The notes under the pieces were generated by a model. That model worked only from the letters and a program-made list of their open reading frames with translations. It made no database searches and was not told the origin of the DNA. The translations under genes were made by a program, and so were the position numbers. A DNA stretch of 64,000 nt from Escherichia coli 042 (GTDB lineage Bacteria; Pseudomonadota; Gammaproteobacteria; Enterobacterales; Enterobacteriaceae). Shown here in pieces: positions 3,170 through 62,551 of this stretch (position 1 is its first letter; each line of letters opens with the position of its first letter). The stretch lies in NCBI RefSeq assembly GCF_000027125.1, contig NC_017626.1; one strand, given 5' to 3'.

Positions 3170-4063
3170 TCACCTGAGAGCATTCAGCAGATGAATACGA
3201 AAGTTACGCGCAGCTGGACTTTGTTCATGATGTTTCGGCCAGACCAACCACATTTCAGAAACTGCATCCTCTTCAGCAATCGGCACCCAGCGCATTTCGT
3301 TGAGCTGAACACGTTTAAATGACGCAGGCAAAATTGAAACACCCAGACCGGCGGAAACCAGACCGATGATGGTCATTGCCTCGCCCACCTCCTGAGTGAT
3401 GACGGGCGTCAAATGGTAACGTCGCATCAGTCCGAGAATATCGTCATACAGCCCTGTCCCTACATGCGGATCAAAAAAGACAAAGGGTTCTTTCGCCAGT
3501 TCAGCCAGCGTTACATTCGGGTTATTTGCCAGGGGATGATCGTGCGGGATCATCGCCATAAGCGGTTCATGGACGATGACTGCGTGTTCAAGCGTCTCCG
3601 GTAACGCTGTGTTACGCAGCAATCCCATATCCAGCGTTCCTTCAATGAGCGGGGCGATTTGCTCGCGAGTGTTCATTTCGCGGGTTTGTAAATGGACATC
3701 AGGATAATCACGGCGAAACAGCGATAACGTATCGGACACCGCCCGAATAAAAGGAGCGGACGAAGTAAAACCAATGCGCAACTCCCCCGCTTCGCCCTGA
3801 TGCAGCCTTTCAGCGCGAGCGGCAGCGTCATCCACCATAGACAGGATTTGCCGACTATCTGCAAGAAACTGTTTTCCTGCTGCCGTCAGCAATACACTGC
3901 GATTGGTCCGTGCCAGCAGTCGGGCACCGATTTGTTGCTCCAGTGCCTGAATCTGCTGACTTAGCGGCGGTTGCGAAATATTCAGGCGGGCAGCCGCGCG
4001 CCCAAAATGCAGCTCTTCCGCAACAGCAACAAAGTAACGCAGATGACGAAGTTCAATATTCAT
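3170..4063 (-). CDS. ynfL: LysR-family transcriptional regulator
   Basis: 297 aa, N-terminal LysR HTH (MNIELRHLRYFVAVAEELHFGRAA); divergent from ynfM as in K-12. Confidence 0.85.
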   Translation of the reverse strand: MNIELRHLRYFVAVAEELHFGRAAARLNISQPPLSQQIQALEQQIGARLLARTNRSVLLTAAGKQFLADSRQILSMVDDAAARAERLHQGEAGELRIGFTSSAPFIRAVSDTLSLFRRDYPDVHLQTREMNTREQIAPLIEGTLDMGLLRNTALPETLEHAVIVHEPLMAMIPHDHPLANNPNVTLAELAKEPFVFFDPHVGTGLYDDILGLMRRYHLTPVITQEVGEAMTIIGLVSAGLGVSILPASFKRVQLNEMRWVPIAEEDAVSEMWLVWPKHHEQSPAARNFRIHLLNALR

Positions 4064-9301: not shown

Positions 9302-9365
9302 CGGGTCCTTCCTGGAATTATGGCCCGTTACGGGGCGGCGACCTCGCGCGTTTTCACTATTTATG
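9302..9365 (+). other. lambda-type cos site, copy A (cosN GGGCGGCGACCT at 9333..9344)
   Basis: cgggtccttcc...gttacg|GGGCGGCGACCT|cgcgcgttttcactatttatgaaaattttt matches remembered lambda cosQ–cosN–left-end sequence. Confidence 0.75.
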
Positions 9366-10050: not shown

Positions 10051-10114
10051 CATAAATAGCGAAAACCCGCGAGGTCGCCGCCCCGTAACGGGCCATAATT
10101 CCAGGAAGGACCCG
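10051..10114 (-). other. lambda-type cos site, copy B (cosN at 10072..10083), inverted relative to copy A
   Basis: Reverse complement is cgggtccttcctggaattatggcccgttacgGGGCGGCGACCTcgcgggttttcgctatttatg; ~90 bp upstream of the Nu1-like start. Confidence 0.75.
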
Positions 10115-10917: not shown

Positions 10918-11973
10918 TTAACCAATTTTGACGGTAACAAATTTGCGAATATCTGCCGGTACCGGCTGCGGTGCACTGTGTGTCTGCACGTACTCAATCG
11001 CCGGATCGCCGTCCTCAATCCAGTTTTTCGGGTAAAACATGTTTTGTGTTGCGCCCGTTCTTACCGCTTCCTGATCCATTATCGCACCATAGGCCACCAG
11101 CCCTTTATTGTTGGTGTTACCCAGGACCAGCAAATCAGGCTCAAGGAAATATTTTTCGGTACCATCGCTGTCAGTGTATTTGCCGGAATAGACGATAAGG
11201 GCCAGATCACCAAGATAGCCTTTAAAGCTCACCACTTCGCCCAGGTTTTTACAGGCCAGTTCGGCGGCGGATTCTGAACCACGGGAAAGATCGTACAGCT
11301 CACGGAATTTTTTAAAGCTGCGTAATGTGCGCCATACCTCAGCGCCCATAATCATGACGTTTGCGGGGCAACCAGCCTGATCAGCATAAAGCTCGATGTC
11401 ATAGATTGGGTCGTGCATGTCTTTATCCTGCTCGGACCATTTTTTACCCTTGGCCTGCTCTATGATGCAGTTTTCCGGTATTTTCCAGTCGATTTCATAG
11501 CGTTCTATGCCTTCGCCCTCAATGATGTTTTTTCCGGTCGTTACCGCATTCACCGCCAGCCATTCCACGCGTGCCTTAATGGCGTTTATCTGGCGGCGCA
11601 TGTTGCCAGTAATCAGGCGCATACGGCGATAGGTAGGGTCGTTAAGCTGTGCCGGATCTTCTCCAGCCATGCGCATGATGGTTTTCGTTGGATCGATTTC
11701 GTGCTTTGGCTTCATGTAGCCAGGTTTGATTGTGCTGGTTTCGTACCCTTTATCGCGCTGAACCTGGCTACCCACCATAGGCGAACAAAACGCCGACATG
11801 GTGACTTCTTCAATGTCCAGGGTATCCAGCATGATGTTTTGCGTGCTGAATGTCGCCACGTTCGGGAAAAACAGCGTGGTAAACAGAGGGCTGAATTTAA
11901 AATCCGCAATATCCCCGCGATTCAGGTACATGAAAAGCTGGTTAGTGTTAAGTGCCGTTGCTTTGCCTGCCAT
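10918..11973 (-). CDS. major capsid protein, lambda gpE family
   Basis: 351 aa (lambda gpE is 341 aa); adjacent to gpD-like gene. Confidence 0.75.
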   Translation of the reverse strand: MAGKATALNTNQLFMYLNRGDIADFKFSPLFTTLFFPNVATFSTQNIMLDTLDIEEVTMSAFCSPMVGSQVQRDKGYETSTIKPGYMKPKHEIDPTKTIMRMAGEDPAQLNDPTYRRMRLITGNMRRQINAIKARVEWLAVNAVTTGKNIIEGEGIERYEIDWKIPENCIIEQAKGKKWSEQDKDMHDPIYDIELYADQAGCPANVMIMGAEVWRTLRSFKKFRELYDLSRGSESAAELACKNLGEVVSFKGYLGDLALIVYSGKYTDSDGTEKYFLEPDLLVLGNTNNKGLVAYGAIMDQEAVRTGATQNMFYPKNWIEDGDPAIEYVQTHSAPQPVPADIRKFVTVKIG

Positions 11974-12212
11974 TATTCACCCCCATAATTTTTATGCATC
12001 CCAAGCGCCGCAAGTAAATAAGAGCGTACAAGTGAACCTATCGACGGCTCCGGCGTCATCAGCGGATCCAGTCCAGCCGCAACGCCAGCTTCATAGTTTT
12101 TTTTGTGGCGCTGCTTGAGCACCTCCACGATTTCGGGGCTTATGTACACCGAAACACCGCCTTTTTTCTCTTCAGCCATAGTAAGAAATTCCTCTTCGAC
12201 TAAAAAAATCAT
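11973..12212 (-). CDS. hypothetical protein (79 aa, or 68 aa from internal Met), first gene of capsid operon
   Basis: ORF; stop overlaps capsid start (ATGA). Confidence 0.45.
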   Translation of the reverse strand: MIFLVEEEFLTMAEEKKGGVSVYISPEIVEVLKQRHKKNYEAGVAAGLDPLMTPEPSIGSLVRSYLLAALGMHKNYGGE

Positions 12213-12235
12213 AACTGGATGTTTATCCAGTTATG
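12208..12235. promoter_or_regulatory. 12-bp inverted repeat (tcataactggat-gttt-atccagttatga) overlapping capsid-operon start codon
   Basis: Perfect 12-bp arms with 4-bp spacer; AT-rich region with further palindrome ttgcattttatgcaa just upstream. Confidence 0.5.
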
Positions 12236-12344
12236 ATTATAATCAGAATTGCATTTTATGCAATGATATTGAGTTATGTTGCAAATTATGAAATGATTAT
12301 CCCGATCACGAACGCCAGTGCATCCAAAAACCTCATATGCAAAA

Positions 12345-12410
12345 GCCCGATAAGAACCCTCTGACCTTATCGGGCTTTTTTTGGGCGCAAAAAAGCCGGA
12401 TTGCTCCGGC
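12345..12410. terminator. tandem hairpins (bidirectional terminator region, approximate)
   Basis: gcccgataag...cttatcgggc + T7, then aaaaaagccggattgctccggc. Confidence 0.55.
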
Positions 12411-12430
12411 TATGTGTGCTGTGTGCTGGC

Positions 12431-12655
12431 TCAGTCTCTGATCTCTTTCAGAAATTCTATCAATGCATCTATCTGTTCAGGATTTACCGCCAGCATTTCA
12501 CCGGATAGAGCACATCTCACAAAACCATGCTGATCCTTTTCAATCAGTGCGCCCGTCTCCAGGAATGCGCGGTAATCATTGATGCTCATCGTCTCCATGT
12601 TGTCAGCATGGTATTTATCACGCTGTTTTAATATCTCATCAAATTTCATCGGCAT
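12431..12655 (-). CDS. hypothetical protein (74 aa)
   Basis: ORF followed by terminator hairpin. Confidence 0.45.
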   Translation of the reverse strand: MPMKFDEILKQRDKYHADNMETMSINDYRAFLETGALIEKDQHGFVRCALSGEMLAVNPEQIDALIEFLKEIRD

Positions 12656-12758
12656 TGTTTTTTTCCTCTGTTGTGTCTGTTTGTTTCAGATAGTAACTAT
12701 GCCTGACCGTGACGAAAACCCGGTAATGCGCCATACCGTTTCAACTGGTGCAAAAAAA

Positions 12759-17774: not shown

Positions 17775-18140
17775 TATTGCCCCCCCTTTCGTTTCTTAAA
17801 GAGTCATCAGGTGTCTTATTGTGTCGTATTGTTCCCGCTAGAGTGATGAATGGCAAATATTGAGGATGTATGATTTACAGAAAATGAAACAGTAAGAATA
17901 AAATCTTTTAAATTCATGTTAATACAAAGGCATAAAATATTGTTTCATGCCTTTTTTCTCGCTCTTTAAAGAGTGATTCGCTAGTGTATAAAAAACCAGT
18001 GACACATTAAAAATCAGCCACTTATAAATCTGTATGCTTTTTCGCCTCTTGTTCGTGGTTGTTCCACATTGTTGCTCATTGTTGCACGTTGTATCTGTTC
18101 GCATATACAGTATGCGCATACTGAAAAAACACGAAAAAAA

Positions 18141-61276: not shown

Positions 61277-62551
61277 TTATTTCCAGCAAATCAGACAGTA
61301 ATTCTTTTTGCCGCGACGCAGTAAGGTAAAACGACCAAACAGACGATCTTCTTCTTTAAAGAAGTATTCAGGATCGGACTGTTTTTCACCGTTAATGGTG
61401 ATGGCATTGGAAGCGATAGTTTTACGCGCCTGACCACGAGAAGGTTGCAGTTCAGAATCGACCAGCGCCTGCATCAGGTCTGCGCCCTTTTCCATCTCAA
61501 CCATCGGTACGCCGTCCTGCGCCAGCTGTTCGAAGTCCGCTTCACTCAGCGCACTCAAGGAACCGCTGAACAGGCATTCGGTAATACGTTTTGCCGCCTG
61601 CAAACCTTCTTCACCATGCACCAGACGTGTCACCTGTTCCGCCAGTACATACTGGGCGCGCGGTGCTTTACCACTGTTTTTATCTTCTTCTTCCAGGGCG
61701 TTGATCTCTTCAATGCTCATAAAGGTGAAGAACTTCAGGAAGCGGTAAACGTCGGCATCCGCAGTGTTGATCCAGAACTGGTAGAATTTGTACGGGCTGG
61801 TTTTCTTCGGATCCAACCAGACTGCGCCGCCTTCAGTTTTACCAAATTTGGTGCCGTCTGCTTTAGTGATCAGCGGAACGGTCAGGCCAAACACCTGATT
61901 CTGATGCAGACGACGGGTCAGGTCGATACCAGAAGTGATGTTACCCCACTGGTCAGAACCACCAATTTGCAGCACCACACCGTACTGTTTGTTCAGACAG
62001 GCGAAGTCATAACCCTGCAACAGGTTGTAGGAAAACTCAGTGAACGAAATCCCCTGATCTTCACGGTTGAGACGCTGCTTAACCGCTTCTTTGTTGATCA
62101 TCTGGTTAACGGAGAAGTGTTTGCCAATATCGCGCAGGAAGGTCAGCACATTCATATTGCCGAACCAGTCATAGTTGTTCGCCGCGATAGCAGAGTTTTC
62201 TCCACAGTCGAAATCGAGGAACGGGGCAACCTGCTTGCGGATTTTGTCCACCCACTCCTGAACAGTTTCTTCGGTGTTCAGCTTACGCTCAGCAGCTTTG
62301 AAGCTCGGGTCGCCAATCAGACCCGTCGCGCCGCCTACCAGCGCAACCGGCTTGTGGCCCGCCTGCTGGAAGCGTTTCAGGCATAACAATGGAACAAGAT
62401 GCCCCAAATGCAAGCTGTCAGCGGTAGGATCGAAGCCGCAATAGAGCGCGATCGGGCCTTGCGCCAGTCGCTCTGCTAACGCTTCCTCGTCCGTCACCTG
62501 GGCTACCAGCCCCCGCTCTTGCAATTGTTTAATCAAGTTACTGCTTGCCAT
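61277..62551 (-). CDS. tyrS: tyrosyl-tRNA synthetase
   Basis: ORF 61277..62563; TyrS starts [10 protein letters not shown]; HLGH and KFGKT motifs. Confidence 0.95.

Follow-up and report, generated by a model that had tools for sequence, protein, structure and literature searches.

A stretch of 64,000 nucleotides from the chromosome of Escherichia coli 042 (contig NC_017626.1), referred to here as the window, contains a minus-strand island of about 11 kb that carries an operon for a major capsid protein and associated functions. The promoter region of this capsid operon lies downstream of two terminator hairpins and includes a large inverted repeat, with a second palindrome a short distance upstream of it. 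The features described below make it probable that the large repeat holds an operator for the host repressor LexA, placed on a sigma-70 promoter of the capsid/packaging operon of a phage-inducible chromosomal island (PICI). The promoter region and the two genes that follow it are laid out as follows, in the direction of transcription.

12341-12411, minus strand: two terminator hairpins (12411-12394 and 12379-12341; -12.5 and -21.7 kcal/mol), which separate the operon from an upstream gene for a 74-residue protein.
12279-12297, no strand assigned: distal copy of the 19-nucleotide motif TTGCAWWTTATGMAATGAT, 30 bp from the proximal copy at 12249-12267, the two forming direct repeats.
12248-12264, no strand assigned: palindrome 2, ATTGCAT-N3-ATGCAAT (7+3+7), with the core ttgcattttatgcaa at 12249-12263 (6+3+6; TTGCAT-TTT-ATGCAA).
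12258-12263, minus strand: putative -35 hexamer TTGCAT, 16 nucleotides upstream of the -10 hexamer, with only TTGC conserved.
12236-12241, minus strand: -10 hexamer TATAAT, ending three nucleotides (CAT) before the LexA box.
12207-12238, no strand assigned: inverted repeat 1, with perfect 14-nucleotide arms at 12207-12220 (AATCATAACTGGAT) and 12225-12238 (ATCCAGTTATGATT) and a 4-nucleotide spacer.
12213-12232, minus strand: predicted LexA (SOS) box AACTGGATAAACATCCAGTT with a heterology index of 6.27, the putative functional core of inverted repeat 1.
12210-12212, minus strand: upstream in-frame ATG inside the right arm of inverted repeat 1, not the start codon.
12202-12208, minus strand: run of seven T directly after inverted repeat 1 on the transcribed strand, which gives the repeat a terminator-like look.
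12191-12196, minus strand: Shine-Dalgarno-like AAGAGG preceding the ATG at 12179-12177, invariant across variants.
11973-12179, minus strand: first operon gene, 68 residues (PHROG 3255), its stop codon overlapping the capsid ATG (TAATG).
10918-11973, minus strand: second operon gene, a major capsid protein E homologue of 351 residues (PF03864).

Inverted repeat 1 is the sole perfect inverted repeat in the window with arms of at least 12 nucleotides and a loop of at most 10, and first-order Markov simulations gave a mean expectation for such repeats of 0.075 per window and of 0.0008 in the local AT-rich stretch. The initial annotation had described an inverted repeat of 12 bp with a 4-bp spacer; the repeat is real but was understated, its arms being 14 nucleotides long and perfect. 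The central 20 nucleotides, AACTGGATAAACATCCAGTT, fit the pattern CTG-N10-CAG with an AT-rich centre, which is the invariant part of the E. coli LexA box consensus, quoted in the literature as TACTG(TA)5CAGTA. The quality of a LexA site is expressed here as a heterology index, a lower index denoting a better site. An additive position matrix for this index was obtained by least-squares fit to 141 site-and-index rows (140 distinct sequences) of a published table of potential E. coli K-12 SOS boxes (supplement of PMC12527982); the matrix was symmetric and its recovery exact, with a maximum residual of 4e-5. Mean-shift clustering in the same work placed all table sites with indices up to 13.6 in the low-index (binding) cluster, and its authors report that the clustering was 100% accurate on 24 experimentally tested boxes (PMC12527982). 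The index of the island box, 6.27, falls far below the 13.6 boundary and within the range of LexA-binding sites. It is also lower, and hence better, than the indices of 6.4, 7.0 and 9.2 in the rows that we take to be the lexA, uvrA and ruvAB boxes, of which ruvAB alone was checked against the genome sequence. As a positive control, a scan upstream of K-12 ruvA found the box CGCTGGATATCTATCCAGCA 50 bp upstream of the gene with an index of 9.19, and this box shares 13-14 of 16 core positions with that of the island.

A match of this quality is not readily produced by chance. The exact probability that a random 20-mer of the same composition scores 6.27 or lower is 2.2e-8 per position, which corresponds to 0.0014 sites in 64 kb and 0.1 in a whole E. 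coli genome, and for a match at this index within 150 bp P is about 3e-6. No other site in the window scores as well as AACTGGATAAACATCCAGTT, the next two having indices of 10.1 and 10.2.

The first of these is a CTG-N10-CAG site at 61983-62002 within the tyrS coding sequence (index 10.13) and is most likely a chance match. The other, TACTGTATATGCGAACAGAT at 18093-18112 on the minus strand (index 10.18), lies 29 nucleotides past the stop codon of the island integrase and about 320 nucleotides upstream of alpA. At the equivalent place the capsid-forming PICI of E. coli O157:H7 EDL933 has TACTGGATATGCGAACAGAT, with an index of 11.58 (L092 31588), and CFT073 is without an equivalent site.

On the transcribed strand the order of elements is TTGCAT (12263-12258), 16 nucleotides, TATAAT (12241-12236), CAT and then AACTGGATAAACATCCAGTT. 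The hexamers are assigned to a promoter because the -10 element is invariant and the TTGC of the -35 element is conserved among relatives. This promoter was absent from the output of a consensus promoter scan because TTGCAT matches only three of the six positions of TTGACA. The relatives were 80 loci on viral contigs, retrieved by a capsid-protein scan and having 92-100% capsid identity, which together with the window and CFT073 make a set of 82 loci. Among 54 unique promoter variants the sequence GATTATAATCA is invariant, and the box starts 4 nucleotides past this invariant TATAAT, the promoter itself being predicted. This arrangement is consistent with published accounts in which LexA boxes often overlap the transcription start.

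The box stands at the same distance from the capsid ATG in 81 of the 82 loci, with indices of 5.4-9.6, and the box of CFT073 has an index of 6.81. The remaining locus (L044) carries an insertion of 1 bp in the box, about 290 nucleotides upstream of the capsid ATG, which turns it into CTG-N11-CAG. In the 479 kb of the 80 related loci there are 79 sites with an index below 11 and every one of them is at the capsid-operon promoter, so that conservation of the box at orthologous promoters exceeds the background level. The pattern of variation within the box is also informative. CTGGAT and CAGT are invariant in the 54 unique promoter variants, with variation confined to positions just outside CTG/CAG and to the centre, and the CTG/CAG pairs of inverted repeat 1 are invariant in 30 of 30 unique variants. 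The pair just outside the 20-mer (pair 6) is mismatched in 14 of those 30, and the outer arms vary without compensation. In three variants a C-to-A change giving ATACAG breaks the stem and brings the box nearer to the LexA consensus, with an index of 5.41. This pattern fits the information content of a LexA site and not a selected stem.

More distant relatives, found through exact-protein look-ups, extend this picture. A Salmonella island (L082) with a capsid protein 68% identical has the box GACTGGATGAAAATCCAGTA, index 7.98, again right after TATAAT, and a Lelliottia island (L087; capsid 58%) has a different box, CACTGTTTTTTCATACAGTT, with an index of 7.57 at the equivalent place. In a third locus (L094; capsid 67%) the box TGCTGGATGTTTATCCAGTT, index 6.34, is shifted 17 nucleotides downstream of TATAAT and has unrelated flanks. 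Of 5,426 complete E. coli genomes about 600 have a match to the promoter region, and the box is also carried by the E. coli strains Nissle 1917 and ATCC 25922. Capsid relatives were sought in one genome per species with no hit, and a phage collection gave no match to the promoter.

The element that carries the operon is flanked by mdtJ/mdtI and neighbouring host genes, presumably correctly named, as the names were recognised from the translations. Its remaining genes are listed in the order in which they are transcribed.

19370-18141, minus strand: integrase.
17774-17586, minus strand: gene for an AlpA-type helix-turn-helix protein.
15324-13924, minus strand: primase.
13475-13065, minus strand: ssb.
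After ssb, minus strand: PerC-family gene, close upstream of the capsid operon with the 74-residue gene in between.
12655-12431, minus strand: gene for a 74-residue protein, directly upstream of the capsid operon.
10905-10570, minus strand: decoration protein, a member of the operon.
After the decoration protein, minus strand: gene for a 137-residue protein, a member of the operon.
9982-9548, minus strand: small-terminase-like helix-turn-helix protein (Rpp-like gene), past a 160-bp gap from the 137-residue gene and possibly a member of the operon.

An integrase, a regulator and a primase-replicase are thus present without a full set of virion genes, as in satellites of the PICI type. The operon under the box encodes capsid/packaging functions and is shielded from upstream transcription by the two terminator hairpins. 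The region 11900-12700 was matched in 763 of the 5,426 complete E. coli genomes, CFT073 among them, where the match has 86% DNA identity across the promoter and operon start and sits in the model island EcCICFT073, between phoQ and roxA. Exact cosN sequences of the lambda type, GGGCGGCGACCT, are found at two places, 9333-9344 (plus strand) and 10072-10083 (minus strand), in opposite orientation and flanking the Rpp-like gene, in agreement with the two cos sites described for EcCICFT073. Gene order, the match to EcCICFT073 and the two cosN sequences therefore identify the island, from its sequence, as a classical Gram-negative PICI of the EcCICFT073 type. 

The 74-residue gene (12431-12655) has about 95% DNA identity with 37608-37832 of L092, the capsid-forming PICI of EDL933. 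The capsid module of that island is of an altogether different kind. Similarity breaks off at the terminators and promoter studied here, and the terminator/promoter junction downstream of the 74-residue gene appears, on this sequence comparison, to be a point of module exchange. In an Edwardsiella island (L083 5908-9047) a satellite-type pair of capsid and decoration genes is followed directly by genes for a portal protein, an S49 protease, another decoration protein and another capsid E; this island may be inserted in or beside a prophage head module, as in helper-embedded PICIs.

From the box, its index, its position and its conservation we infer where transcription would start, that LexA would bind and that the operon would be SOS inducible. 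The promoter TTGCAT-16 nt-TATAAT would drive the genes for the 68-residue protein, capsid E, the decoration protein and the 137-residue protein. In the undamaged cell a LexA dimer on CTG-N10-CAG, 4 nucleotides past the -10 element, would block RNA polymerase; if the start lies 6-8 nucleotides past the -10 element, LexA would cover the start region from about -3 to +17. DNA damage would lead to activation of RecA and self-cleavage of LexA, and the operon would be derepressed. Lambdoid helper prophages answer the same SOS signal, and the operon would then be on when a resident helper is induced; in published work the lambdoid helper prophages of EcCICFT073 were induced with mitomycin C. The initial annotation had proposed a late promoter under a dimeric regulator, acting as a switch that times capsid-gene expression to helper induction. 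There is indeed a separate predicted capsid-operon promoter, the large repeat does look like the operator of a dimeric repressor, and control through it would couple expression to the signal that induces the helper; the regulator indicated, however, is the host LexA and not a late activator. The earlier idea was right in kind, a promoter operator timing the capsid genes, and probably wrong on the regulator. RNA and protein data for EDL933 under ciprofloxacin ('CP-933C') were considered as an SOS test and set aside, as this element, a capsid-forming PICI, has a capsid operon of the HK97 type whose promoter is without a LexA box.

A number of observations weigh against LexA control. On either side the symmetry runs 6 bp past the LexA 20-mer, and seven T come next, so that the whole also resembles an intrinsic terminator; Salmonella retains the outer arms, and a double compensatory change is seen in one E. 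coli variant (L021). Sites with an index of about 10 occur at apparently non-functional places in the window, such as inside tyrS, and weaker scores are therefore not specific. There is no LexA box at the equivalent promoter in Edwardsiella L083/L084, E. coli L085, L086, L088, L089, Serratia L090, Salmonella L091 or the loci L095-L097, and LexA control would therefore be a trait of one subclade and no family-wide requirement. In L085/L086 the aligned segment (3715-3760) looks like a decayed box and the -10 element is TAAAAT instead of TATAAT, which may represent a weaker promoter where repression has been lost. According to published accounts, induction of EcCICFT073 needs AlpA and a helper phage and expression of alpA is independent of SOS. 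EcCICFT073 is also reported to block lambda on infection, a situation in which no SOS response is expected; an interference gene, if it lies in the capsid operon, therefore needs another, non-SOS route of expression. In the literature searched no report ties EcCICFT073-type islands to LexA, and LexA control is apparently unreported for Gram-negative PICIs.

The large repeat had also been described as overlapping the first start codon of the capsid operon, which is not borne out. A mechanical open reading frame of 79 residues begins with the ATG at 12212-12210 as its first in-frame ATG, and this codon is not conserved: most relatives have ATG ATT TTT TAA at this place, with a stop codon in frame, and others have ATA, CTG or GTG instead of ATG. 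The RefSeq annotation in CFT073 is the 68-residue form, equivalent here to the ATG at 12179-12177, and sequence comparison places the gene start at 12179. In a second predicted RNA hairpin, at 12170-12204, the start codon of the 68-residue gene is paired to the Shine-Dalgarno region.

Upstream of the large repeat the sequence is AT-rich, as originally noted, the local stretch having 33% GC. The 15-bp palindrome reported there is present at 12249-12263, although it is an imperfect 15-mer (6+3+6) and is not conserved as written. A repeat of the size of palindrome 2 arose in 13% of simulations of the local sequence and alone is not significant. What is conserved is the inner dyad TTGCA-N5-TGCAA (12249-12263), which overlaps the -35 element and the spacer. 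Its exact form stands here in 62 of the 80 viral-collection loci, and also in Salmonella L082, in E. coli L085/L086 and in Edwardsiella L083-L084; it is therefore kept even in relatives without a LexA box. In the Edwardsiella island the dyad occurs twice, 32 bp apart (L083 3673-3719). The left arm varies past TTGC, the -35 hexamer being TTGCAT here and TTGCAC, TTGCTC or TTGCGC in most relatives. The distal stretch at 12279-12297 is near-invariant and forms the most conserved part of the promoter. Neither the dyad nor the 19-nucleotide motif was found elsewhere in the window beyond chance. Besides the LexA box there is probably a second input to the promoter through TTGCA-N5-TGCAA and the related upstream copy, and the dyads, with predicted centres near -27 and -57, look like a second operator system for a dimeric factor. 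The dyad is not known to fit the consensus sites for IHF, Fis, FNR, CRP, ArgR, MarA or sigma-54. The 68-residue product has a conserved N-terminal VSVYIS stretch and, in a structure model, two helices after an extended N-terminus, with weak fold matches to ribbon-helix-helix proteins; it has no Pfam match and no sequence-level match to solved structures. This product may be a ribbon-helix-helix autoregulator and is a candidate factor for the dyads.

These elements can be combined into a two-signal promoter, a proposal that we put forward only tentatively and regard as rather unlikely. The 32-bp palindrome would act as a LexA operator in DNA and, with its run of seven U, as a third terminator for RNA reading through from the upstream, AlpA-activated operon. 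An island protein, possibly the 68-residue product in the role of a ribbon-helix-helix autorepressor, would use the dyads near -27 and -57 as operators. If this were so, the capsid/packaging operon would answer the host SOS response and not island induction, and Gram-negative PICIs would have evolved independently a split like that of the pathogenicity islands of Staphylococcus aureus (SaPIs), with a helper-sensing master switch and an SOS-sensing packaging operon.

It is unlikely that the large repeat is instead the operator of a dedicated dimeric regulator from the island or helper (a late activator, a PerC-like protein, AlpA or a phage repressor), its likeness to a LexA box being incidental. 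Perfect symmetry over 32 bp does exceed what LexA requires, the near-invariance of CTGGAT/ATCCAG among close relatives could equally be explained by a specific regulator, conserved dyads lie just upstream of the repeat, and the PerC-family gene is close by, with the 74-residue gene between. The half-site of the repeat, however, is found nowhere else in the window, which gives no sign of an island regulator with several operators. In Lelliottia the box is of the LexA type (CTGT...ACAG) with different half-sites, and in L094 the 20-mer is retained with other flanks and at another position. A site centred just downstream of the -10 element suits a repressor and not an activator, and a LexA match within 150 bp is not expected by chance (P ~3e-6, as above). 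The activator dyad of P2 and P4, TGT-N12-ACA, is not present in 12150-12420, and a late promoter of the P2/P4 type, activated by Ogr or Delta, was rejected on this ground. The suggestion in the initial annotation that a helper late activator, PerC or AlpA acts on the large repeat is thus not borne out, and the sequence points to LexA.

We also think it improbable that the repeat and its run of seven U act as RNA, in the form of an intrinsic terminator or leader attenuator for transcripts that either read in from the AlpA-activated operon upstream or begin upstream of 12238, the capsid genes then being under antitermination. The consensus scan lists 12238-12207 as terminator-like, with 14 pairs and a T run, and the predicted hairpin is stable (-17.7 kcal/mol, z = -6.0), although only four of the 14 pairs are G-C and the two terminators directly upstream (-12.5 and -21.7 kcal/mol) were called stronger. 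A similar extended hairpin is predicted in the Salmonella relative (-16.5 kcal/mol), E. coli, L094 and Salmonella all have a T run after the box, and the double compensatory change of L021 would be in keeping with pairing. AlpA of Pseudomonas is a processive antiterminator, which would suit the antitermination part of this reading. Transcription from the predicted promoter, however, would start inside the left arm and leave a stem of only 6 bp. Moreover about half of the unique variants disrupt the outer stem (pair 6 is mismatched in 14 of 30), and the ATACAG variants disrupt the inner one; the Lelliottia hairpin does not reach significance (-6.1 kcal/mol, z = -1.7) and yet the LexA box stays, and in L094 the outer arms are absent and the box is retained. 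The conserved feature is the LexA pattern and not the pairing. In addition to LexA control the repeat may serve as a secondary, extra terminator for read-through from the upstream operon.

That the repeat has no regulatory role, being a quasi-palindrome kept perfect by template-switch repair at a constitutive promoter, is very improbable: quasi-palindrome correction can yield perfect repeats and apparent compensatory changes without selection, and relatives without the box do exist, but none of the 30 unique variants alters CTG/CAG at this promoter position, where neighbouring positions do vary, and the box recurs in diverged forms against a chance expectation of 0.0014 per 64 kb. A cos or packaging site at the repeat was also considered and rejected, the cosN sequences lying at 9333-9344 and 10072-10083 instead. 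An Rfam search of the whole island gave no match at E <= 1.

LexA control of the capsid operon would be of some consequence for the biology of these islands. In published work, Gram-negative PICIs are described as AlpA-induced by a helper-phage signal that is independent of SOS, and the capsid homologue showed no phenotype in the published tests. If the LexA reading is correct, part of a Gram-negative PICI senses the host DNA-damage response directly, and antibiotics that induce SOS would derepress the capsid-operon genes of the island even without a helper phage. The regulatory logic would also be convergent with that of SaPI operon I in unrelated satellites. As the same box is present in the well-studied model island of CFT073, the LexA reading is easy to test.

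Among the closest known systems is EcCICFT073 itself (Fillol-Salom et al., 2018, 2019), an island of the same type. It has the same order of int, alpA, primase, ssb, perC and capsid operon, with homologues of c1499 and c1500, and also two cos sites of the lambda type. It differs in that the published papers searched give AlpA- and helper-dependent induction and mention no LexA box at the capsid operon. At the level of the operator a close comparison is with ruvAB, whose box (CGCTGGATATCTATCCAGCA) has the same CTGGAT...ATCCAG half-sites and a location in the promoter region, and the index of the island box falls within the range of proven operators. The island site is on a mobile element and over virion-type genes and not repair genes, its symmetry is 6 bp longer on each side, and its flanks are better, with an index of 6.27 against 9.19.

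The late promoters Psid and PLL of satellite P4, which depend on P2 Ogr or P4 Delta for activation, have an activator dyad, TGT-N12-ACA, near -55 and poor -35 elements. As in the island, capsid-related genes of a satellite are placed under a dedicated promoter that is timed to the helper cycle, a switch of the sort envisaged in the initial annotation. The island promoter in contrast has a perfect -10 element, no TGT-N12-ACA in 12150-12420, and a symmetric element at the start site, where a repressor would act.

The closest precedent is in the SaPIs, where operon I, the packaging/morphogenesis operon, is reportedly controlled by LexA. In both cases a satellite of the PICI class has a late packaging/morphogenesis operon with its own promoter and a host LexA box, predicted in the case of the island, and in both SOS would switch the operon on in step with the helper prophage, with excision and replication controlled separately. 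The LexA motif is the Gram-positive one in SaPIs and CTG-N10-CAG here, and the operon encodes TerS, Cpm and Ppi there as opposed to capsid E, a decoration protein and possibly the Rpp-like gene here. The master switch is the repressor Stl in SaPIs and the activator AlpA in the island, where LexA control is moreover predicted and confined to one subclade. Gene content being unrelated, common descent with SaPI operon I is not indicated, and the likeness between the two systems is functional only.

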